Source: Perna viridis (Eukaryota). Taken from it: 64,000 bases of DNA. A model generated the notes under the pieces. That model made no database searches and was not told the DNA's origin. It worked only from the letters and a program-made list of their open reading frames with translations. A program made the translations under genes and the position numbers. Below, piece after piece: positions 12,330 through 60,899 of the stretch (positions are counted from its first letter, which is position 1; every line of letters begins with the position of its first letter). The stretch lies in assembly GCA_037379345.1 (NCBI GenBank), contig CM074511.1:53078862-53142861 (forward strand), in the 5' to 3' direction.

Positions 12330-13400
12330 TTAAATGTAACTTCTCCACAACTTCAGCAAGTCTACAAGCTCACCAGAAGTTGGTCTGTCTAAAGAGGATG
12401 CTGACCAACATTGCGAATAGAGATCTTTGTAGCATTCTTCAAATGGATCAAGTTCAATCTCGGGGTGTTTTGGCCTGTGCCCAAATGAAACTACTCCAAA
12501 GATAACCACATGTTGGTTTTCGTTCCCATACGGAGCCGTTCTGGCTAACATCTGCCACATTGTCACACCTAAAGAGTAAATGTCTGCTCTCATAGAGGGA
12601 GCTTCTCCTTTTAAAAGTTCTGGAGCTCTGTAAGCGAATGTGCCAGTCAACAAAGATCTTTGAGTAGGACTCACAATTCCAGTGTCAATTTCTACTTTTT
12701 GCGAACATCCAAAGTCTGCAAGCTTGCATGTTTTACCATCTGAAGATATCAAAATGTTAGCAGGTTTTAAGTCTAAATGACAAATTTTGTTCCCATGAGC
12801 ATATTTCAAAGCACTGGATATTTGTAAAGAAAATCTTAACCTCTTCATAGGTCCAAATGACACGGTTTCATCATCAATGAGGGCCTGTAGAGTCTTATCA
12901 CCAGCATACTCCATAACTATCCAAGCACCTTTATCAAAAGAATCCAAAGATGTAGCAGTAATAGTTTTTACAATGTGCCGATGTTCAAACCCAATAGTAT
13001 TCAGTTCTGCCTTGAAACTCTCCAATTGAGCAGCAGGATTTTTCGATACCCTGTGCAGAACTTTCACAGCTACTTTATTGTTCTTATATTTTCCAACATA
13101 TACAGCACCAAACCCTCCAGAACCAAGATACGGCCCTAATTCCACGTCGTCTTTATTTAATGACGAAACTTGTCTTCTCCTTGAATGTGCCTTGCAAATG
13201 GGTCGTTTGAACTCATCCCTTTTCTCTGATTTGACCATTACAGGCATAACAATCCTCTTGGCAACTTTAGCAATTCTTTGGCGTAACGCAATGTACTTTT
13301 TCACTAAACACTGGCTTTGTTTTTGTCCATTAGAGCCACTGAAAGATCCTCTCCTCTTTCTTACATCACATTTTCTATTATATACACTTTTAATCTGCAT
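12330..13400 (-). CDS. MOS: Serine/threonine kinase Mos (oocyte MAPKKK), intronless
   Basis: 356-aa ORF with LGSGGFGAVY, VAVK, ESFKAELN, HLDLKPANIL (HLD typical of Mos), KLADFGCSQ, GTFAYRAPELLKGE, ADIYSLG; single exon as expected for Mos. Confidence 0.93.
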   Translation of the reverse strand: MQIKSVYNRKCDVRKRRGSFSGSNGQKQSQCLVKKYIALRQRIAKVAKRIVMPVMVKSEKRDEFKRPICKAHSRRRQVSSLNKDDVELGPYLGSGGFGAVYVGKYKNNKVAVKVLHRVSKNPAAQLESFKAELNTIGFEHRHIVKTITATSLDSFDKGAWIVMEYAGDKTLQALIDDETVSFGPMKRLRFSLQISSALKYAHGNKICHLDLKPANILISSDGKTCKLADFGCSQKVEIDTGIVSPTQRSLLTGTFAYRAPELLKGEAPSMRADIYSLGVTMWQMLARTAPYGNENQHVVIFGVVSFGHRPKHPEIELDPFEECYKDLYSQCWSASSLDRPTSGELVDLLKLWRSYI

Positions 13401-13999
13401 TTTGCATATTTCTCATCAAACTCAATCTAACGAACTAACTTGTTCAAAGCGACAATAAAAACAGTTCACGTTTGGGTTAAAGGTCATGATTTGAAAGTAA
13501 GAAGTAGAACTTCAATTGAGTAGTTTTAATTGTATTTTTTTTTCAATGATTACTGAATAATTATTGTTGTTATTAGTACCTCCAGACAATTTGGCGGTTT
13601 GGTAATTAATTAACATGGTTTGGACTATTTTAAATTTGTAAACTATGATTATGGAAAGTCAATAACGTGCTATAAGCGCCGTGAGCTATTAGATGATAGA
13701 ACAAGACATGGATTAATTATTCGAGTTAATCTGCACCTTTATTATAAAAAAATAATAACATCTCAACACACTCTGGAAATTATTTAAAATCTTTTTTTTT
13801 TTGCATTTGATAGGTTTGCATGGTTTATTATTTAGGTTATTAATCAATGGTGGGTCCTGGGGTGCAGCGGGTTGGCATCCCACTTTTTTATTGGAAAATT
13901 TGTCATTTTCATGTGTAAAATTGACAAAAAATGATAAATAATGTATTTGCACCCATTTTCGGACCACTTCACTAAGACAAAAAATACAATTTGTACACC

Positions 14000-47000: not shown

Positions 47001-50000
47001 TACGGAAGATGGGTCAACTTCTCTGGTGTTATAGGTTCGTTGTTTGGCAAGACTTTATTAATTTCGCTGTATAGTTTTTCTTGGACGTCCTGGTTCTTTG
47101 CTAAGCAGTACAGGACCCACAATGAACCGGTCGTTGTCTATCAAAATTTCAAAAAAAGAGACCATTGTAAAATTATCATATTATGTCAATCCTAACGACA
47201 TGAAAGTTTGATTGGGATTAAATTTTAATGACACCTTTAAGACATCGGAAAATGTCTACGCTTTCAATGTGATTCAAAATCCCTACTTTCATTGGTTATT
47301 GGTCATGTGTAGTACGGGAGGCCATGTCGACAAACTTTTACAATCAAAGTATTTTTCTTGCTCCTTTTTTTCAAAATGAACCTCTAAGCACGCAAATGGA
47401 ACAAACCGAGATTTCAGCGTAAAATACATTGCATATGCTACACAATATAGTACGTGCTACACTTTTTGTAGCTTATGCTAATTTTTTTACAGCATATGCA
47501 ATTAAATATAATTTTGAACATCTTGGTACATAGTAACATAAATTGTGTTGATATTAAGAACATGCGTTGATAATTACACATCACGTAAATAAAGGTTAAA
47601 AGGTTTTCATAGGTAATATTTTGCTTCTTTCTCATAATACGCCAGTTTATACAATCTTTCATTTATAACCGACCTTTGATACATATTAATAATATATAAA
47701 ACCGTAAATACGGCACAATTTGAAATAAGTTTTTTTTATGCAATAATAAACCCGTAATTAAAAGTTCCAATTCTTCAATGTAGTTCAAAAAGTAGGAAAT
47801 GTATATGTACATTAATAAGTTATGGTAAATACGTAGTTATAATTGAAAGGACTCGGACGTCTGTCCAATTGTGCGACTATACAAAAATACAATACATATT
47901 AATATTGCAAACTGATGTATGCTATACATGTGTTTCAAGGAGTAACCCATCATCATCAGCATTAAAACCAAATACACGGAAGATCTTTATCCAAAAATAA
48001 ATTGTATAGAACAAGTACTCAAAGCGAAGAATATCGAAAGGGGAAGCCAACTACAGCACCGAGAAGTTCTACACAGTGTAATACGACACCGAGTAGTTCT
48101 ACAAAGTGCATATACAGCACCGAGAATTTCTACTAAGTGCAATATAAACAGCACCCAGAATTTCTGCTAAGTGCAATACAACACCGAGAAGTTCTACTAA
48201 GTCCAATATATACAGCACCGAGAAGTTCAACAAAGTGCACTGATTACAGCACCAAGAAGTTCTATAAAGTAGAGTACAGCACTATATATAAGTTCTACAA
48301 AGTACAATATATGCAGCAACGAGAAGTTCTACAAAGTGCAATACAGCACCAAGATGTTCTGCAAAGTGCAATACGAGGAATGAGGAATAACTTTTGTCTG
48401 GAATTTTCAAGAAATTTAATTTGGTTAAGAGAAAAAAATCAAAGCTAAGTCGCTAATCGTCAAATATTCTATACCACTGATTTTGGTTTACTTTCAACAT
48501 CCGAAAAGGCACAAATGCGATATGCTCTAAAATCGGGTGACTTCCGCTAGAATCTTGGTTCTCTTGATATGATTACTCTTTCGTAACCGTGATGACCCGA
48601 ATGTTTTTTTTTCAATCAAAACAACTGGTTACCTAATAATGTGTATGACCTATATAGTCAATTGTAATGAGTCCGTGCGCCTGAATCAGAAACTGGTAAT
48701 GTTCAATGCTAACCGATCATTTCATCTTTTAACGTAAACTTCCCGTTCTCATACAAGCAAAAATCACACGTAGAACACATTTGCATGATATTTAAAAGGC
48801 ACATTTTGATCTCGTATGAAGCCAGAACGATGAAGCTATGACGGTAAACACGACACGGATCTGCAACTTAATGTGGAGTAATAATAAATAATTATGCAAA
48901 TCATATGCGACTGTAAAGTACTGAAATTAAAAGAGCGGAAGTATTTTCTTAACGCTTTAAAAATATTCTTGCAGAGCACCAAGACGATTATGTTTACTCA
49001 TCTTAACTAACAAACCATTTTTTTAACCTGTCTAATTCTTATTAGTCTGTATAAAACACCCCGCATAGTAACCTATATTACCATTGTGTTCTGGCTTACC
49101 GTTTCTGTAGCGCCGACAAGTAAATCTACAGCAGTTGATAAAGCTTCATTAGGAGTCAAAGATTGTTGTGACAACAGGTAAATAAGAAGTGGTACATGTT
49201 CGCCCTTTTTTATTTCAGAAGATTCAAGCTGAGCTTTTTGCTAAATTGACAAAAACAATCGGGTATTTAGTGGTATAATGTGTAGTACTTAATTTTAAAT
49301 GTTACATTATCTATTTATGAAGAAAATCATGGCATGTAAACTATGAGCTGCTACTTTGAATAAATTGTTCATGCATGCATCTGAATCAATTTTTTAGAAT
49401 TTCTATTTGTTTATTTTTATTGGGTACTTTACACGACTCAACACGACTACGAATAATTAAACATTATAGTAATTCACTGACGAATCGATCAATAGCTTGA
49501 ACATGTACTGTGAATCCTTATTATACTGAACGTTCATCGGTATGTTATATATTTATTTTTACAAATGCACGTTTTAGCAGAAAAAAATGATGCCTTGGAC
49601 TATTTATTACCTTGTCCACGAATGACCTTCCAATTTTCAGTATGTTGTCCGCATATTGTTCATATTGTCGCCATTCCTTGGTCGGATATATTTTATATAA
49701 TGGAAGATTATACATCAATGGCTGCATGAGTTTGAAGAAGCCCTGGAGATTAGCTATGAAGTCTTGAGCAAGCTGAGGTGTCTTTTCCCCTAAGCAACCG
49801 ATTCTCTCTTCAAAAAGAAAGGTTCCTATGGCTGAAATTTAAAACATTAAATAATAACATTCCCTACCAATAAATCTGGTTTTATTTAGTCCTAGATATT
49901 GTTGCATCACAATGGTTTCGCATAGCAGTTGTGGAAATAAATTCTTGGCAAAGTATAAATATATATAAGGTGTGTTTTGTTTATAAACATGAAATTAACA

Positions 50001-52121
50001 AATTGAAATCCGACAACACGAGTCTAATTATTCAAAGGGTTTTTTTTTAATTTAATTACATGTGTCTTAAGTCAATTATTTGTACTGAAAAAAGACAGAA
50101 AACCACAGTAATGAAAAAATACTGAAATTTTCAGTACTAAAAAATGACTGAAATTTTCAATACTAAAATGTTTTGGGAAAGGAAAGTACTGATTTTATAT
50201 CGGCATTAAAAGTAAAAAAATCTGTAGTTAAATTCCTGGTAGTGTATTATATATATTTTTGCGTTTAAAAGCATGTCGCGTAATTGACATTAAACTCTGA
50301 ACATTTCTTTTATTTGTTCCGAAATAAGCATGCCTTGGTATGATAGCTTATGATGAATTTCTGTACAAAACAACAGACATGCTTTAACCCTAAAATATAC
50401 ATACATTCCATGGCCCATTTGAACAGCTCATTCTCGATGCCATTTATTTCGTGGTTATTATCACGTTTTCTCTGTAGGTGTCGTACGAAGTCATCTGCTA
50501 CGATGTCCATTTCTTCACAATAACTAAGCACTTCCTTAATCTTTAACATTTTCTTACTCACTACTGTTCTAAACTTGTACCATTCTTCGCCTTGTCTGTA
50601 CAGAAAACACGTCAAACGTTATAATAATGATCTAAATGTATTATGAACTAAATAAACTGTAGTAAAATCGACACGGCAAGTTGCAAATGCAAACAACAAA
50701 TACGTTTACACTATTTGCATCAACATTCTCAATTGCACACGATTTCACCGAAAAGTATAAAGTGAGACTTCAACACTGAAGTGCAGTTTGGATGAAAATT
50801 AAATATACTATCTGGATGTTTAAAACTGGAAGACAGATATTAGTACACCAGAGTACACTTCAAAAGAGACAGGAACATGAATATTACGCGTAGCAGACTA
50901 GCAAACTTATCTTCTGTACCATGCAAAAAGGGTAAAAGCATTTTTTTTCTAGCTTGGATTATACTTGTTATGGAACAGAAGTTCCTCTATAATAAAAGTT
51001 CCGGAAGAAATATTACAGAATATTTGTTACTGTGGAATTTTTATTGTAACATTTGTTCCTAACAAAATAAACCTAATATAACAAATGTTCCTACAGAAAT
51101 GTTCCATTAGAACTTCTGTTATTAGAAAGAAATGTACGTAGACATACTTACGCATATTAGAAAGAAATATACGTAGACATACTTACGCATTAACTAGTCC
51201 TAGACCAATGTTCTTTTTTCTTCTATAGTGAGCCATTGGTTCCATTTCTCTTCTGTTTGGGTACTTCCGCTCCGCTTGAATAACTTTGTTGTATTCAAGA
51301 GGGTCACTTATTACTACCGTCGATATTGTGGCAATATTTTCCTGGTATATCGGACCGTACTCTATTGCCCGTTTTTGATAAGCCTAAAATTTAAATGAAA
51401 ATAGTTGTGGAACCAACCACTTGCTTTTGTTTGGTATTATCAAGTTCATTAACTTATTCTGAACCAGTATATTCAAGGAGGTGCCAAATATTTCAATAAC
51501 TACTTTTCATCAAATAATTTTTGTATCACTGTTCGACGATCGCATTAATTCTGATTGTACAGATTTTTGTCATAGTTTATCTATAATTACATGTAGCTCT
51601 TTTCTTACACTCTACAGATCATTTGCAACTAGAATTTAAATCTTCCTTTGTGTAATGTTCTAGCATACCTCAAACATCTTATTAAACCGTAGTCCATCTT
51701 TTTTAAAGTAATCAAACAGAGTTCCTACGACTGGGTATCCTTTTGGTCCTGGTACTTCTTTAAATGGTTTTATTGTGCATTCTGTAATATTCTGTTCCTT
51801 TTGTCTATGTTGGTTCCCATTGAGTAAACTGTTTATTTTATCCACAGATTTCTTGAAAGGACACTATAGAATGAAAATACGCGAGTTAAATTCAGTTAAG
51901 GGACTTTCTAAACTTTGTCAGATTGCTGGATATATTAGGAAACTCTTATGGCATATTCATGAAAGCTGGACAAAAATATTATTATGACAGGGGGGGGAGG
52001 ATAATTAAACTGAAAACTTAAGGATACCCTTTAACAAAGGGTTTATACTTTGTATAAAGACTTATTGCTTGCAGATAGACATTTTTGGTAAGCCCTACTG
52101 AGTCAGAAAAAGAAGCATTAA

Positions 52122-52156
<35 letters not shown>

Positions 52157-53611
52157 GACAAAAAAAAATAAAGTTTATTATATTCTTGTTATCGGTCAGT
52201 TTTGGCAGTTCCTAAATTACCAATTTATAATAGTAAAGTAATACTTTAAACTGTTAGCGACAGGAACATATCTTAATCTGAACAAAGGAAACATTGCCTT
52301 TTTAAATGAAATGACTACTAATATTGTGTAGATTGGGGGCAATACAAAAGATAAAGGAGAAGGGGCGGTAAAGGGTCTTTTTGACCTAAATTCAACTAAA
52401 ATTAACCATAAAGTGTTGAATAATTCAGTTGTGAATTTGGAGACTTGACCCCATCACAAATAAGAAAACATGAAGATTTCTGCTGATTCTTGCATTGAAA
52501 GGACAGAAAATTTGCTTACAATGTACCAATATTCAGATATACTGTCAAATTTTGTACTTTTTGGTTACTTGCTGGTCATATTTTATGGCAAGGAAATGTT
52601 GCCCACATCCATTCAACAACTTCATAGTTGGTGAATACATTCATTATTACAAAGTTTATCATAATTGAAAATATAACTTTGTTTCTTGGGTGTGGACATA
52701 GTTTTCTTGATGTAAATACGTATGAAAAAAACAACAAAATTTACAATTCTCAGCATGTTTTGTTAAATGACATAAAATCATGGCACCATCATGCTGTCAT
52801 TACAATAAACTAATGCCATAATTTATCATTTTTCCTTATATTTATATATTTTACTATGTTATGAACAATTTTTATGTTATTACAACAAAGTTGATAATTT
52901 AGGCAAAATTCATATCTTTAATTGTCGATAGTACCGCATACAAGTTTGACGTCAACCGTCAATATATTTGTCAGCGCATGAGTATCGTTTATTCTGTATT
53001 TTTAAAACAATAAGCAAGTTGGGGAAAAACTATGATGTAGGTTAATGTTCTGAAGTAATACTGCTTAAAATGGCATATTCAATGTACTAAAAATGAGGGA
53101 AAGTTCAGTCGAAGTCCATGATCAGAGGTGACCATCTTCAACGTGTACATAAATACTGTGCAAAGTTCAAATAAATTTGGTTTAAAAACTTTTGAGAAAA
53201 TGGCTAAGTTCAACATGCTGAAAATACAGGAAAACAATAATCACATTTCTCCATAATAGGGGGTGCACATCTTAAAGATGTAAATTAAGATTGTGCAAAG
53301 TTTGAATAATATTCGTTCAATACTTTTTTGGAGTTACAGATTGCACAAAGTAGGTACCCCTAAGCGTGACGGACGAAGAGACATGGTATACGGAGTCGGG
53401 CGGCTACTAGACCTGCTTTCACCGTTGGTGACGCAGGTAAAAAGGGACATGATGACAAATCTTAATATAACACATGACCTACCGATGTTTCTGTTACTTC
53501 ATCTATTGCTATGACTTTTGCACTGGGTGGACTGGTGACTGTTGTTGATACTACCCGCTGTGAGCTTTTCGTTATTGCTTGAATCAGTTTGCTTCCGTTT
53601 CGAGTTGCCAT
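44027..53611 (-). CDS. CYP10: Mitochondrial-clan cytochrome P450, CYP10-like, ~551 aa, 11 exons: 53611-53483, 51863-51669, 51383-51187, 50595-50405, 49831-49611, 49240-49100, 47137-46971, 45965-45887, 45529-45370, 44856-44813, 44158-44027
   Basis: Basic/Ser-Thr presequence MATRNGSKLIQAITKSSQRVVST, CPFKKSVD, PGPKGYPVVGTLFDYFKKDG, QGEEWYKFR, I-helix LLVGATETT, K-helix KETFR, PERW, heme motif WGHGARMCIGRR; consistent phases (1656 nt). Closely recalls Lymnaea CYP10. Confidence 0.88.
48050..48375. repeat. ~30-32-bp minisatellite in CYP intron
   Basis: About 10 units of ACAGCACCGAGAAGTTCTACAAAGTGCAAT. Confidence 0.9.
52122..52150. repeat. (TG)n microsatellite
   Basis: About 14 TG units. Confidence 0.95.
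53030..53443 (+). mobile_element. HINE-like element fragment in CYP intron 1
   Basis: Two GGTG..CATCTT...TGTGCAAAGTT cores, GACGGACG microsatellite, terminal ACCTGC..TCACC.TTGGTGA.GCAGGT hairpin and A-run. Confidence 0.6.
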
Positions 53612-55659
53612 TCTTAAAAATTCATTATTTTCATTCTAAAAGTTCTCAATGCTTTATTTTGAAACTTTTGATAGTAAATAATTTTGATTCCCGTTGAAAT
53701 AATTCATAGAAATTCGTTTTATTCTAAGATATCAAAAAAGGAAAAAGATCTGGAGGCGCAAGCGTAAAAAAAATTTTCATCATTCTGATAAACATGTGCA
53801 TATCGAAATGTGAAGTAGAATATATGCACCACTTAGTTCCAGGTATCTTTCATGTACTAAACTTGATAATGGTAAAAAGGAAAAAACAATAGATAACGTA
53901 CTTTTGAAGTCTAATTCGGGAGTAACAAAGAATGTGCTTTGCTTTAAAAATTTTAAAACTTACGTTTTCAGTGAAATCTGTGTGTTAGCTCCTTAAGGTT
54001 GTTGATGAAGCGGGTTTCCAGCCTTATTCTCAGAAATGTTATTGTACCCACTCGTTTTATATCAAGTTCTATCACATTAATTATTGACTTGTTGAATCAT
54101 GCTGGTGTTGTCTGAATGGAAACACCTGATCTCTTGTAACACCACATATTGTGAGCATATCATAAGAAGATCATCCTTATTTTTTACATCTTTAAATGCC
54201 ATATACGGTAAAGACACGGCGTGATTTTAGACCAAAAGTTAAATCTTTCTGTTTTGTCTTTGACGTTAACAACTTATCCTCAAAAAGATGTTTTCCCCAA
54301 AAGCTTAAGTTGAGAAACATGAATCAGTATCATGGTAAAAGGTTTACTTTCTTTCTGTATCACTAATACTGAACGTGGCCAGTATCAAATATTTTAATTG
54401 AGTTCTTACCAAACCGTCGCGTTTTAGATTTCTTTAAATTAGATATACATGTACATAGCCCATGTCTTTAATGTTGTACGCATTCTTGTTTATAATTATT
54501 GATATAAAAACGAGTTATTGTTATTAAAAGAATCCAATTTCTGACATCAGAAAATAAAGTTTTTTTGGGAATAAAAAATATGAAAAAAACTGTTTTTCTA
54601 TATACATGTATAAAAACCATTATAGATAAAAGCATTTTCCGATATTAAAAAAAAACAAAAATAAACTTTCAAAACATTCAGAGGGTTTTTTGTATCAAAA
54701 TTTATTTTGTGATATAAAATACATTTTCAGATATAAAATCAAAGTACTCATGTACTGAATCAATTATATCGATCGTTTGAAATTTTACGCCTCAAATAAC
54801 GACAAATTGCAAAATTTGGAATAAAAGGAAAGTACGAGCACTGAATTCAAACGTATCTAAACTTAACCATATTGTTGTAAATAGTTAATGTTGAATTATT
54901 TGGTTTATTTTTAAATTCACCATTCTGTTAACGAAGGACAAAACAAAAGACACACACACACACCAATTTCATAATTTCATAATCGTAGCAGTGCGCCAGT
55001 TTGCGTAATGTCCGGGTTCGATGGTGGTTTACATGGAACACATAGATGAATGAACACAAAACTCTCCGAGATACTGTATGATTGAGCTGAAAACTACTAT
55101 AGTTGGCCTTTCCCAGTTTCTAAATATTTTCAAGTCGGAATTTAATTAAGGACCTCCAGGTTGAAACTGTCTGTCAAATCATTCAATTTTAAGCCGCCAC
55201 AATCACTGAAATAAATCCTTAGATACACACCCCTTTTAACCACCTACATTCCTCAGTTGATAAAAGCTTTATAGCTCAATTATCGCATTGACACCTATGT
55301 TTTAATTAAAGTGCTTAGTTTCTTAGGAATCTAGTTCCAGACACACGTACATTAATACAAACGCCAAAGTCTTAGAATACAATTTCAACAATTATGTTTA
55401 GTGCAGACAACACTAGCTATGCACTTTTAAGGCCCTTGAGTACCTGCAGCACCTGCAGCTCTATTATCTTTACACATGACCAAAATAACCCAATAGAACG
55501 ATTATTGCAAAAAGCAATATCATGACCACAGACTGACCGAATTCCCGAGAAATGCATTATCGAAATTCCTATGCCATCCTTTAAGCAACATTTCATTTTC
55601 AATTGTCATCTCCGATGTCATGAGGCGGTAACCGTAATAAATATACACGATACAGTGAG

Positions 55660-55893
55660 TTATACATCGGGGGGGGGGGGGTATGCTACCCTTTTTATAA
55701 AACATTTGTTAAAAAAATGAGTGGCTAATGATAGCATAGAAGTCCTTTCTTTATATAAATTTCTTGATCCGATCCACTGCCCCCTTTTTGTAAATATTTT
55801 GATCCGCCAGGGCCTGCGTGAAATATCAGAAATATCAAATATATCAGCTTTAGCATTCCGACAATTTATAGCCGCGCAGGTTTTCATTTCCAT
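55660..55893 (-). pseudogene. Degenerate THAP-domain-like coding remnant (probably DNA-transposon derived)
   Basis: MKTCAAINCRN...RP..W...THFFNKCF retains the CxxxxC, W and HF..CF positions of THAP; the third Cys is missing. Confidence 0.35.
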
Positions 55894-57610
55894 CTATATT
55901 ATGAGTCTGAAAATAAAAAGACAATTTGAATATATCGACAGTGAACGACTGTAGAAATAAACAGGCACTGAGATTAGAAGTCAACCATTTTAATCGGAAT
56001 GTTGTTACACAATTTACAATCCTAATTAATCTGCATATTAAACTCACAGTAAAACTTGTTTATTGGGTTTGTTTATTGGCGTAAATAACATAGAACAAAA
56101 GTTGACATACTTGAGATACCTAAAAATATATTTAACCGGTACGTCTAAATACCGCTTAGCCCCGGCTAAGTGCACTTAGCCCCAAATATTGATTAATATC
56201 TATATTTTTGAAGGTTGGGATGAAAAGATATGTCAGATATGGTTATATATTTGAACTTTGTTTAGAGATATTGTTATTTTATTTTAGGAAAAAACGGTTT
56301 TTAAAACGGCACGCGCTGTCTGTGTGTCGGCAATTTCGTGTGCTATCATGCGTATACAAATTAACAAGTTAATCAAGCAATATACGGCTTGTCAATTAAT
56401 TTATGATTAATTGTTTGTCTTCAATTTTATGCAATAATGACCTATTCAATAGAATTGGCGAAAAATAAATGTGCACTAGCTCGGACAAATGGTCTTTGAT
56501 GTTCATCTCATAAAAACATTTTAAGTTTAGACAGAGAACGATAAAGAATAAAATATAAAAACAGTCTTTTTTTGTCGCAATATTAAAAAGATTTCTTGTT
56601 TTGGTAAAATTTTGTGAGTAAAATTAAGTATCATTTAAATATGGAACATCGGTATTCTGGACATTCATAGCGAGCGCATTTACAATATACAATATAAATT
56701 TCACAAAATATACGAGATGTGGCGTCCTTGGGGATCACCAACTACGTCCGTTGATTATGACATGGTCTTACATAGATTGCAAGAGGTATATATATATTAA
56801 TTATTATTAATTTAGATGAAAGATTGTTGTTTCTTTTTTAGGTAATGCATTTATCACTTTCCGTATTTACAATATAAATTATAAAATTATAAGATATGGA
56901 ACGAAATAAATATCTGAACAAATTCTGACCGCTGAGTATATATATATATATCGCCCCCAATGTATCGCCCGTCGTCTTGTTGCACATTGGAAATTAACTC
57001 AGTTAGTAAGATTTATTTGATCATTGTTTCTTTTTTGTCCAGAAATATACCCCTTAAAAGAACGCAATGATCTGAATAACTTCTGAAAACTAAGTTTGAT
57101 TTTTGTCCGATGCTTGACCAGTAAGACTTTGTTCTTTTATTCATTTCGTTCCTAAAACACAAACAAAACAGCCATCAAAGTATCCTGGACATTTGATAAA
57201 TAAAACAGATACGGAACGAAATAAATATCTGAACAAAGTCTGACCGCTGAGTATTATTGCCCACATTCTATCTTACCGTCGTTTCCCCTCCGCCAGTAAG
57301 TCCACTTTGTACATTGAAAAAAATATCGTAAAAACTAAAAGGCATTGTTCTGTTCTTTATGTCGTTTTGGAAATACACACACAACAAAATCACCATGTGG
57401 GCCCTCTCAGCAGAAAGTCGGGATCTACCGTATTTGTATCATAGATCTTTTATAAAAGAATATCCAGATCGAACAAGATATATCTGAATCCTTATTCTTG
57501 CAACATCGTTTTCAATCATATAAAATGGCGTCAAGTTACGTGAAATAATAAACCATGCTCTGGTTACTTTTAAATAAATAGAAATATTTATTTTTTGTTA
57601 TTTATTTCAG

Positions 57611-58232
57611 GCCTGCCAGTATGGATTCCTACATTTACATGATGTTGCCATAGCAAAGCGTGACCGCTTACCACCTTTTCAGCTTCCAACTACAGTGACT
57701 GCACCATCACGTATTGACGTCTTATCACAGACCTATCTACAACAGTGTAATATGCAAAATATTGGTGTCCCTTACTATGTTCAAGATAATGGTAGTTGTC
57801 TTTTCAATGCCGTTTCGGTAGATTTATCCGGAACTGAGACATTATCTACAGAACTGCGTGTCCGTACTTGTATAGAAATGGTTACAAAGAAAGACATATA
57901 CATCTATGCCTAATGCAAACAAATTACTATGGGTTTCGCCTAATTACATCACATCTACATTTGATTGTGCACATGCACGTGGTTGGTCGTCCTTATGGAC
58001 ATTTTATGCATTAGCTGAAGTAATAGGTACAACTATCAAATCTGTATACCCTCCTTGAAATGGTGGCCAAGACATATATTACAAAACGCTTAATTTAGAA
58101 GCTACCACAAGAAACAACATGCATCCAAATGATATGGTTACGATTTTATGGACCCGATCAACTAGTCATAAAGGTTCAATGTGGGTTGCAAACCATTTCT
58201 CACCTATTATACTGCACGTAGATACATGGTAA
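57611..58232 (+). pseudogene. Vertnin-like OTU cysteine protease domain (frameshift ~57910, stop ~58056)
   Basis: After acceptor TTATTTCAG: DNGSCLFNAVS..LSGTETLSTELRVRTCIEMV, then in the shifted frame GWSSLWTFYALAEVIGTTIKSVYPP*..TILWT...WVANHFSP (Cys box and His box). Confidence 0.8.
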
Positions 58233-59193
58233 ACAATGACAGCTTTGTTCAAGAAGTGGTATATACACACGGCAACAACAAACCCCCGTCCATTATTTGT
58301 TACACTAAACAGCAACTAGATGATTTGAAACAATTTTTGATGACCAATCAAGATTGCATTCTAGGTATAGATAGAACTTTTAAACTTGGCGCCGTTTATG
58401 TCACAAATCTAGTATACAAAAACAAGAAGGTGGTGTCAAAAGAAACTGGTGATCATCCGATTTTCATAGGCCCTATGTTCTTACACTGGGAAGGTTCGTT
58501 CCTTTCGTACCACACATTTTTATCTCATATGAAAGCACGCATTCAGGAAAGTGTGAAATGCATCGATTTACGAATTGGAAGCAACGATGAGAGTGGTTTG
58601 ACAAAAGCAATTGACAGTGTCTTTCCTAACATAGAACGACTTTTGTGCACTAAACACATGAAAGACAATGTTTCCGATCACCTTAGAAATAAAATTGGAT
58701 GCAACGACCAATTGCGAACAAATATTCTAAATAACCTATTTGGGCCCAACGGACTGACATCGGCGATAGATCCCTCAGATTTTCATATCAAGGCTCGAGA
58801 TATTAGCAGAAACTACCCTGAATTTGATTCGTATTTTCAAACCCGTTTAAAAGACAGACTGTTTCATTATGTTAACATTCCAAACTGGCAACTGGACTAC
58901 AATCGTTTATGGACAAACAACAACTGCGAATCCATAAATCACGTCTTCAAGAAGGCAGTAAACTGGCAACCAAAGTCAATTTCGAATTTGATACAAGACT
59001 TACATGATATTGTTACCGTGCATTTCATAGACTTAAAACGTTCACTTTACGGTAGTGGGAATTATGAATTGTATGGCCGTTACAGAAAACACTTACATAT
59101 AAAAACTTTGAAGTTCCACAACCAAAAAGACTTGCTGCCAAACCATACCAAAGAATAAGACCTAGAAACTGCCGTACAAAGCCAAGATTTTAA
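58181..59193 (+). pseudogene. MULE-family transposase core (internally deleted; second catalytic Asp appears as Asn)
   Basis: LGIDRTF (D1), IGSNDESGL (expected GSD/GTD), LLCTKH (CxxH), WTNNNCESINH (E). Basic C-terminal tail AAKPYQRIRPRNCRT in another frame; AATAAA at ~59264. Confidence 0.85.
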
Positions 59194-60899
59194 CATGACA
59201 ATAGTTCTGCAAATGTCTTTATTTTGTTGATGTTTTACATGTTATTATACAATATAGAGCTACAATAAATCATTCAAAATAATTTACATTTACTTTGTTA
59301 TTTACACCAATTAATAATTAGTAATAAAATGTGTAGGTGTGATAAGCCTTCACGGTCTACTGAACTTGGAAATACAGGCACGTGTCATTATGATATCTTA
59401 AAACACGTTTAAATCAATAATTGCTGCAGCGATACTTACAAAAATCGAAATACAACATCTTCATAATTCAAATTTTGTCTATTGATACTAATATGCACAC
59501 ATAAGTGTTTCCATCCCGGGCTAAGAGCACTGTTAGGGGCTAAGTGCACTTAGCCCGGGCTAAGCGGTGTTTAGACAGACCCGTTAAATATGCATTTGAA
59601 CCTAATGGGGTTGCCAATGGGTCCTAGTCTACCATTCAAATGTATGGAGATTCGTCATTAACATAGCATTGTGTTCAATATTAAAAGCGAAGTATCATTT
59701 TTGGGTAAAAATACTGATTAAAAATGACAATTATCAAGCTCTAAGAGATAAAAATGTTTAGAATAGCATAAAATAGAAGATTTTGCATTGTGAAGCAGGT
59801 TTGAATTTCCGATCTAAATTGATAAAAATCTGATATCAGGCACGAAACCACAATTAATTTTCCCACTGTCTTCTTTATAGCCTTTCTGTAATTTAAAAAA
59901 ATTCCACCGGCGCAATTCAATTCAGATTTTCAGGGATGTTAATTTGAACCTTCCAACAACTTATATAAAAAATATAAAAAAAATTACCATTATTTTTTCA
60001 AATTTTATGCATAAACACAGAGATACCCTAAAAAATGACCCAAAATGGCTTCTGGATGTCACAAACTTGACCTTTTTTGACCTCACCAAATCACAACCTA
60101 AATGTCAAATTTCTCATTTCAACACATCTACTAAAATAATTTCATTATTCCTCTTCAATTTGAGCACAAAAAGTATGAGAAATTCTGAAAGGAAGTGTTT
60201 CTAACAAAATTTTGAAAAATCCCCTATTATTATATGAACTATATACAACGAAAAGCTAAGGGCAGATAATTGTGGTCTCGTACCATCAGAAACGTAAGAC
60301 AAAAACAGCATGAATAGTTATTATCAATGCGAAACAAGATTTTCTGATATCAAGAAATTATTACATGATTTATGTGTACATGTATTTCCGCTTCCGACAA
60401 ACTACAGGATTAAAACGTATAGACCCCAAAAATGTTAATTATTTTTTTTAAAATGTTTCACAACAAAGACATGGTGCATTTTCTTGCAAGATTCAGTCTT
60501 TAAGAAATTCTGACATTGTAAATTTCATCATGTGGACGTTGAACAATTGAATTTTGGAACAAAGAAGGCGAGCCTGAGATTCTCGTGAGAAAGCCAGTAT
60601 AAAAAAACCAACATGCCTAAAATTCTCTGTATCGGTAAGTTTAAAGTAACATTTTATTTTCTTTTTTTTTTGTGCGTAAAAAAAATTCAAAAATCAAAAT
60701 GTTGACCTTGAAAAAGGGTACTTTCAAATGACCTTTGTCTATTAACACCACTGTGACTTTTAAACGATTTTTCGGGCATACCTGGTTTTAAACTCACAAA
60801 TGTTTACATCATATATTTAGCTTTAAATATACCCTTTTATATCACATGTTTAGATAAAAATATACATTTTTGTATATGCATTATAAGTTTTTGTTAAAA

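Follow-up and report, generated by a model that had tools for sequence, protein, structure and literature searches.

We analyzed a 64,000-nucleotide (nt) stretch of the Perna viridis genome (GenBank assembly GCA_037379345.1, contig CM074511.1, positions 53,078,862 to 53,142,861; hereafter, the window) and identified an element, at 56137-59582, that is best explained as a member of a recently active, multicopy cut-and-paste transposon family of the Mutator superfamily (Mutator-like elements, MULEs). The transposase of this family carries, fused in frame at its N terminus, an OTU domain similar to that of VRTN (vertnin); the OTU of the family is probably a deubiquitinase aiding transposition. 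Judging from sequence comparisons and predicted structures, we estimate the probability of this explanation as a whole at roughly 0.8. The window copy itself is an ordinary dead insertion, and the intact form of the family is known from related proteins and read-derived contigs.

The family reference is P0001, a protein of 848 amino acids (aa) that is the best match to the DDE core of the window copy (98% identity) and whose numbering is used for all residues and lesions below. A single open reading frame (ORF) of P0001 extends from the OTU domain to the tail, in the order OTU domain, disordered linker, CG-1-like domain with the GCM/WRKY fold, helical domain, MULE DDE core, and basic tail, and the intact family probably produces it as one protein from a spliced transcript; many relatives (such as P0016, P0029, and P0033) have a PHD finger at the N terminus. 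Thus, rather than being a separate cargo, as proposed in the first-pass annotation, the OTU is the N-terminal domain of the transposase, with the linker and the GCM/WRKY-fold domain lying between it and the core. Among named proteins, those of Mytilus are closest (56-60% in the core); further ones come from Branchiostoma, Mercenaria, and Mya.

A 3,873-nt contig assembled from DNA run X2 covers 56787-59555 and contains 1,000 and 103 extra bases at the two deletion points of the window copy, and the majority contigs of X2 and of a second DNA run, X3, are free of its frameshift at 57895, stop at 58057, and changes at 58384 and 58583. The depth of the X2 element contig is 720, compared with 38-61 for the flank contigs, contig depth being a rough guide to copy number only, and contigs 12 and 13 of X2 show 24 differences from the window over ~3,400 aligned bases. 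This pattern suggests to us that the family is young and has about ten or more copies that are almost identical. Among viral contigs, 80 pattern matches were found, none of which was confirmed. Four matches from genome bins lie on contigs of metagenome-assembled genomes (MAGs), measuring 2.6-4.6 kb in three cases and 2 Mb in the fourth; we take them as probable host DNA in the bins, with no transfer claimed. The 2-Mb contig, from a Paracoccaceae MAG, contains a frameshifted member without the OTU (L084, CBDDAE010000001.1).

The fusion was assessed in two sets. A search with the DDE core alone against proteins of 547-2,000 aa gave 21 matches (P0001-P0021), and 84 loci were compiled from the best 80 of 368 metagenome matches, ranked against full-length P0001, plus the 4 from genome bins; the protein set is free of the bias that such a ranking introduces. 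The OTU profile matches 15 of the 21 core-derived proteins, 13 with both the Cys and His boxes and two whose ORFs begin inside the domain; of the remaining six, four begin downstream of the OTU, a fifth begins at the His box, and P0011 has another N terminus. Of the loci, 37 have 1,800 nt or more ahead of the core, and 34 of these show an upstream OTU; full-length OTU domains retain the Cys in 30/30 cases and the His in 29/30. The co-occurrence of OTU and MULE core and the persistence of the Cys/His dyad in other copies, like the single ORFs, bear out the earlier proposal of an animal MULE lineage with an OTU of this kind. At several loci, the DDE core is interrupted by gaps the size of introns.

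The OTU is under purifying selection, with a ratio of nonsynonymous to synonymous substitution rates (dN/dS) of 0.14 in both divergent pairs with unsaturated synonymous sites (0.17 and 0.06 for the DDE core); in more distant pairs, the OTU values are 0.16-0.35 or saturated. OTU and DDE identities correlate across the 24 loci in which both are open (Spearman 0.51, permutation p 0.0005), a result that relatedness alone can give. If only the window were considered, where the OTU and the core lie in different frames with stops between them, the two might be taken for chance neighbors, brought together by nesting or a one-off capture, with the OTU as neutral baggage. However, one ORF spans both in P0001 and in relatives with as little as 33% identity, the loci repeat the arrangement under dN/dS of ~0.14, and the majority contigs lack the breaks; we consider chance neighborhood refuted by P0001, the contigs, and the loci, and leave it almost no probability. 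Within the lineage, P0011 is nested among OTU-bearing relatives in the DDE tree; judged by eye on motifs, its N terminus resembles a Ulp1/C48 SUMO protease, possibly a protease swap within one lineage, an assignment that Pfam and PDB did not confirm. In L048 (2495-4649), several OTU copies precede one core, the first with a His-to-Tyr change, as in VRTN.

The AlphaFold model of P0001 (predicted local distance difference test [pLDDT] score 73.5) was compared with solved structures using Foldseek and Z scores. Its OTU domain gives the best Z scores to OTUD3 and OTUD1 (Z 14.6, root mean square deviation [rmsd] 3.3, 130 aligned residues for OTUD3) and matches VCPIP1 at Z 12.3 over 145 residues. 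The profile check suggested in the first-pass annotation gave a divided result: PF02338 scores above the cutoff in the close relatives P0003, P0005, and P0006 and PF00872 does so on the window core (23.5 bits, cutoff 21), but PF02338 is not listed for P0001, the two broken OTU halves of the window alone have no Pfam match, and PF10551 stays below its cutoff on the window core (E 0.017), passing it in P0014, P0017, and P0021. The catalytic Cys and His boxes are present in both the window and P0001, and all motifs quoted earlier for the window copy (NGSCLFNA, ELRVRTCIEM, W..YALAEV...IKSVYP, ILWT, and WVANHF) are indeed there. An Asp is located 25-29 residues before the Cys in 18 of 24 MULE rows, the other six ORFs starting too late or nearly so. 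This suggests an A20-type Asp-Cys-His triad, which in A20 itself consists of Asp70, Cys103, and His256 (PMC11311569, available text). The close solved relatives of the domain are all ubiquitin or ISG15 proteases, and the family OTU is quite likely an active protease of ubiquitin or a ubiquitin-like protein.

In the DDE core, D541, D612, C633, H636, and E727 are invariant in 15/15 aligned rows, and the best Foldseek match of the P0001 core is the ISCth4 transposase (E 6e-7; Z 10.6). The middle domain (aa 243-430; L001:2203-2754), modeled with a pLDDT of 87, was compared with 48,161 chains; the top six structural matches include GCM (Z 6.9, 99 aligned residues, rmsd 4.1), WOPR (5.9), WRKY (5.5), and NAC (5.0), and on this structural match (Z 5.0-6.9) we assign it the WRKY-GCM1-NAC fold. 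Its invariant motifs are DDCG.W, QP, RYY, EY.G, and HGN. Pfam CG-1 (PF03859) was matched by 3 of 15 members, with a best E value of 0.002 and 17.7 bits for member 1 against a cutoff of 23.5, and the sequence profile of the domain matched no solved structure. The CAMTA domain has been placed in the same fold class (preprint 10.1101/2022.11.22.517060, available text).

The window copy is a nonfunctional deletion derivative, retaining 3,446 bp of ~4.5 kb, with the following parts, where TIR denotes terminal inverted repeat and TSD, target-site duplication:

56128..56136, no strand: 9-mer outside the left end; its exact reverse complement lies outside the right end, so no direct TSD
56137..56191, plus strand: left TIR, starting with CGGT and containing a CTTAGCCC/GGCTAAG palindrome
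56717..56785, plus strand: probable first coding exon, 23 aa, ending in YDMVLHRLQE at a phase-0 GT donor
56786..57610, plus strand: probable intron, 825 nt, GT...AG, phase 0
57611..58228, plus strand: N-terminal helix and vertnin-like OTU domain, with the upstream Asp, Cys box, and His box, recognized by motifs, PF02338 in intact relatives, and the fold match to OTUD3
58226..58228, plus strand: junction of a 1,000-nt deletion, with loss of the linker, CG-1-like/GCM-fold domain, and helical domain (aa 160-492), as seen in X2 contig 13
58226..59099, plus strand: MULE/IS256-type DDE core with D541, D612 (Asn here), CxxH, and E727
59096..59193, plus strand: C-terminal basic tail, after a 103-nt deletion; stop at 59191-59193
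59528..59582, minus strand: right TIR, ending in ACCC
59583..59591, no strand: 9-mer outside the right end, inverted relative to the left one

The verdict that this copy is dead holds in every particular against the majority contigs of X2 and X3. Two nucleotides were lost at 57895, causing a frameshift in the OTU; a stop follows at 58057, still within the OTU; the catalytic D612 is changed to Asn at 58583 and the invariant N545 to Lys at 58384; the 1,000-nt deletion at 58226-58228 shows 3 nt of microhomology; and the 103-nt deletion at 59096-59099 eliminated aa 784-816. Because its OTU is frameshifted and stopped, the middle domain is gone, and the second catalytic Asp is Asn, this copy can act neither as a protease nor as a transposase. 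The large deletion removed the middle of the protein, such that the DDE core only appears to follow the OTU immediately, as the first-pass annotation described it; the adjacency is an artifact. Its splice acceptor, by contrast, stands (tttcag/GCC at 57609-10), the P0003 ORF being continuous across the same FQA junction. The probable first exon aligns with the helix that in relatives comes after the PHD finger, at a hidden Markov model score that is not significant; a PHD finger was not found in 56137-57760, and no spliced reads over 56785/57611 are listed for the runs. The probable intron holds a 59-nt direct repeat (56881-56939 and 57196-57254; 88%) and an inverted partial copy of it (57121-57152).

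The longest inverted pair in the 50- to 64-kb portion of the window is 56128-56191/59528-59591 (64 nt, 88% complementary). Because family termini at L012, L017, L022, and L041 read 5'-[C/G]GGT...ACC[C/G]-3', we place the ends of the element at 56137 and 59582; the TIR-bounded element noted at first pass, with TIRs of ~55 bp, is retained, its ends moved one base inward from 56136 and 59583. Weak subterminal similarity continues beyond the left TIR, to ~140 bp, and GGGCTAAG occurs at 59518, 59537, and 59557, in or near the right TIR. In the relatives at L012, L017, L022, and L041, the TIRs are built from short tandem repeats and resemble foldback elements; L022 is nested within another TIR element. 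The chance of a given 9-mer by composition is ~3e-5. The inverted 9-bp flanks of the window copy might have arisen if the replication template was switched while the TIRs were paired. A TTAA TSD, which we take to be piggyBac- or Kolobok-like, would fit the window if the ends moved by one base; the 9-bp TSD of L022 and the termini of the four loci argue against it. Neither a second copy nor an empty site was found in the window.

VRTN is a recognized inactive OTU-like protein (PMC10318531) with an IS3/IS911-like helix-turn-helix (HTH; PMC3024977), and in human VRTN the catalytic Cys is replaced by Leu and the His by Tyr (PMC3024977, supplement 9; PMC10318531), as given in the available parts of these sources. 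VRTN residues, spacings, and identities were counted by eye on the published alignment (PMC3024977, supplement 9). Over the block from the Cys box to EM, 19 of 46 residues are identical between human VRTN and P0001, which also share the motifs ELR.RT..EM, W..YALA.V, I.S.YP, and I.W and the upstream Asp, located in VRTN 26 residues before the Cys position; the vertnin-like character ascribed to this OTU at first pass is thereby upheld. Among Pfam-named clusters, with OTU clusters skipped, Vertnin is the second nearest to P0001 aa 1-160 (score 0.77, a lead only). Kinship of the family OTU with the VRTN domain is credible, and the comparison tilts toward a transposon origin of the VRTN OTU.

These same resemblances could be taken to mean that the MULE lineage was the direct donor of vertebrate VRTN, as could the OTU tree (46 rows, without any VRTN protein; P0071, P0123, and P0085 shortened by a motif rule; root unsure, with the outgroup on long branches), in which the clade of the window copy (95/97) and the long forms group together with 88/91 support. 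However, the spacing from the Cys to YP is 107 in VRTN, as opposed to 85 in P0001 and 81-95 in 28/28 MULE/CG-1 OTUs, the short forms; a spacing of 104-126 is found in 105 of 123 other OTU proteins, a comparison set largely gathered with the long-form profile. Over the IYS.YP..IRP block (ungapped), VRTN matches the long-form P0144 at 11/22 positions and P0001 at 6/22. Furthermore, the VRTN C terminus consists of HTH_Tnp_1/Vertnin_mid, with HTH repeats and no CG-1-like or MULE domain, and the OTU clade is not confined to this lineage. Long-form OTUs sit on hAT-like (DUF4371, zf-C17orf113), DUF7869, and other transposases, and the clade is also present on FLYWCH-MULE and other proteins (P0052, P0061, P0068, P0071, P0075, P0144, P0156, P0159, P0162, P0183, and P0184). 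The label hAT-like follows from the DUF4371/zf-C17orf113 matches, and some carriers are presumably Sola2-like or CMC-like, to go by their motifs. Direct donation by the MULE lineage is therefore improbable.

Because its spacing of 107 fits the 104-126 class and not that of 81-95, VRTN more likely comes from a long-form carrier, and probably from a transposon other than the one described here. Short and long forms are homologous over 152 columns (hhalign 99.9%), and the window family differs from the Vertnin family in its short core and in having kept, rather than lost, the catalytic residues. The long-form profile matches 5,384 representatives at E<=0.001. No VRTN protein was returned among the 64 matches from 8,000 scored candidates or the best 150 of the 5,384, HTH_Tnp_1 has no match in P0001-P0021, and none of the 230 proteins collected has the VRTN-type motif. 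The suggestion that the element is related to the one from which VRTN was domesticated survives as OTU kinship and is weakened as to source, the spacing and domains fitting long-form carriers. The OTU would accordingly be a module swapped among DNA-transposon superfamilies, with VRTN a dead member of that clade. Two other proteins are possible further domestications: P0085, with three long-form OTUs in tandem, an LRAT-like domain, and a hydrophobic tail, and P0229, with an OTU and two Death domains.

MULE transposases generally bind TIRs and cut and paste through the DDE core, generating a TSD of ~9 bp. In the present family, the CG-1-like domain would recognize the GGGCTAAG motifs that recur in the TIRs, with cutting and pasting left to the DDE core. 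The tethered OTU would take ubiquitin off locally, its substrate being either the transposase or proteins of chromatin and DNA repair at the sites of excision and insertion, and would thereby probably help transposition. An anti-silencing or transposase-stabilizing role of the OTU is conjectural. Local deubiquitination has a parallel in the Ginger1 OTU/Ulp1 domains, for which the same role in transposition or repair has been proposed (PMC2836005, available text). The main rival holds that the OTU cuts a transposase polyprotein in cis and is not a deubiquitinase, as suggested for the Medicago MULE-OTU fusions (PMC1702500, available text), and the long, variable, low-confidence linker after the OTU (pLDDT <50, aa 157-239) would be compatible with it. 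Yet the family alignment shows, by eye, no conserved linker motif usable as a cleavage site, in other transposases the OTU may sit at either terminus (C-terminally in P0061, P0156, and P0159), and its close solved relatives are, as noted, ubiquitin or ISG15 proteases throughout. We regard cis cleavage as a long shot and favor local deubiquitination.

Several observations weigh against the picture of an active transposon with a deubiquitinase. The window copy lacks a direct TSD at 56137/59582, and the two loci with both ends and flanks are split, with a perfect 9-bp TSD at L022 but no TSD at L012. At the residue two positions after the His, OTUD-type triads have Asp or Asn, whereas the MULE OTUs have Val, Ser, Ala, or Thr; that the upstream Asp serves as third triad residue is proposed on its spacing. 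The CG-1 matches fall below the Pfam cutoff, and Z scores of 5-7 are middling. Ranking the loci against full-length P0001 favors OTU bearers, and P0011 shows that the lineage can do without the OTU. Finally, in RNA run X21, of which 19% was read, the depth over the element is at most 5 with no splice joint among the rows shown; the reads are all first-mate-plus, some with letters of other copies. Were the library stranded in the common way, these reads would be antisense, and antisense transcription of the element is possible.

A bolder synthesis, to which we give only slender odds, would be a single-chain eraser, binder, and cutter, in which an A20-type deubiquitinase strips silencing or degradation ubiquitin at transposition sites. 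The lineage might then be a reservoir of a transposon OTU clade that spread to hAT-like and other elements, one of which gave rise to VRTN, and the CG-1-like domain a mobile counterpart of the CAMTA DNA-binding domain, linking two host regulator families to transposons. Ubiquitin and SUMO proteases recur on DNA transposases, and in the available text of the papers cited here their role is only proposed; with OTU and transposase in one chain and P0001 intact and young, this family offers a clean test, in which a single Cys-to-Ala change can be assayed for transposition. The family also supplies catalytically intact relatives of the dead OTU of VRTN, supporting a transposon origin of this vertebra-number gene, and directs the search for the VRTN donor toward long-form OTU carriers. 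The weak match to CG-1 may offer a clue to the origin of the CAMTA DNA-binding domain.

Elsewhere in the window, cytochrome P450 exons (PF00067) are encoded on the minus strand at 49548-53635; the first of them probably lies close to 53600, at a distance of ~2.5 kb from the transposon. Inspection by eye showed two further minus-strand features, a gene resembling acetyl-CoA synthetase at 20.5-29.5 kb and, at 12333-13412, a long ORF of kinase-like character. Very high-depth repeats flank the element at 55100-56095 and 59616-60284.

Comparison with known systems places the family close to Mutator/MULE elements and their IS256 relatives (ISCth4; 6XG8/6XGX), with which it shares the DDE core with CxxH, PF00872, TIRs, and, at L022 but not at L012 or in the window copy, a 9-bp TSD; many MULEs also have a WRKY-GCM1-fold domain before the core (PMC1702500), as here. 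It differs in the in-frame N-terminal OTU and in the middle domain, a large CG-1-like version. Rehavkus, a MULE relative, compared by description (PMC6446971, available text), has similar 9-bp TSDs (here at L022), PHD fingers (here in relatives), and repeat-built ends (as in L012 and L017), but a PHD finger was not found in this element, and a 3' minisatellite is a Rehavkus trait; Phantom, likewise compared by description, variably carries FLYWCH or SWIM (same source), neither of which is matched in P0001-P0021. The main text of the 2019 MULE survey (PMC6446971) does not mention OTU, nor does any group in the available part of its table list it. A20-like human OTUs (A20, Cezanne, VCPIP1, and TRABID) share the Cys box PL...GDGNCL, Z scores of 10.6-12.3, and the probable upstream acidic third residue, whereas the domain described here is compact (~150 aa, OTUD-sized) and 12-18% identical. 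VRTN shares the OTU motifs and upstream Asp, differing by a core longer by ~22 residues, the Leu/Tyr substitutions, the HTH repeats, and the lack of a transposase core. Transposases with a ubiquitin or SUMO protease are represented by Ulp1-bearing MuDR elements of plants, hydra, and lancelet and by the OTU/Ulp1 of Ginger1 and OTUs of Helitrons (Bao et al. 2010, PMC2836005), the available text of which gives Ulp1 rather than OTU for Mutator, OTU being assigned to Ginger1 and Helitrons, in contrast to the OTU on a Mutator element here. The closest precedent, the Medicago MULE-OTU (Babu et al. 2006, PMC1702500, available text), likewise combines a MULE core with an OTU-superfamily protease, but is a plant element with a C-terminal OTU, a WRKY-GCM1 zinc finger, and SWIM, whereas the present family is animal, with an N-terminal OTU of the vertnin-like clade. 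The literature searched does not describe an N-terminal vertnin-type OTU on animal MULEs, a transposon derivation of VRTN beyond the IS3-like HTH, or a link between CG-1 and MULEs; Repbase, CDD/InterPro, and some supplements might record elements of this type, and CDD probably contains a model for the vertnin OTU. The family is therefore a variant on a theme already in print as MULE-OTU (Medicago, C-terminal), MULE-Ulp1, and the Ginger1 and Helitron OTUs, and what appears new against the literature searched is the architecture of an N-terminal vertnin-type OTU combined with a CG-1-like domain.

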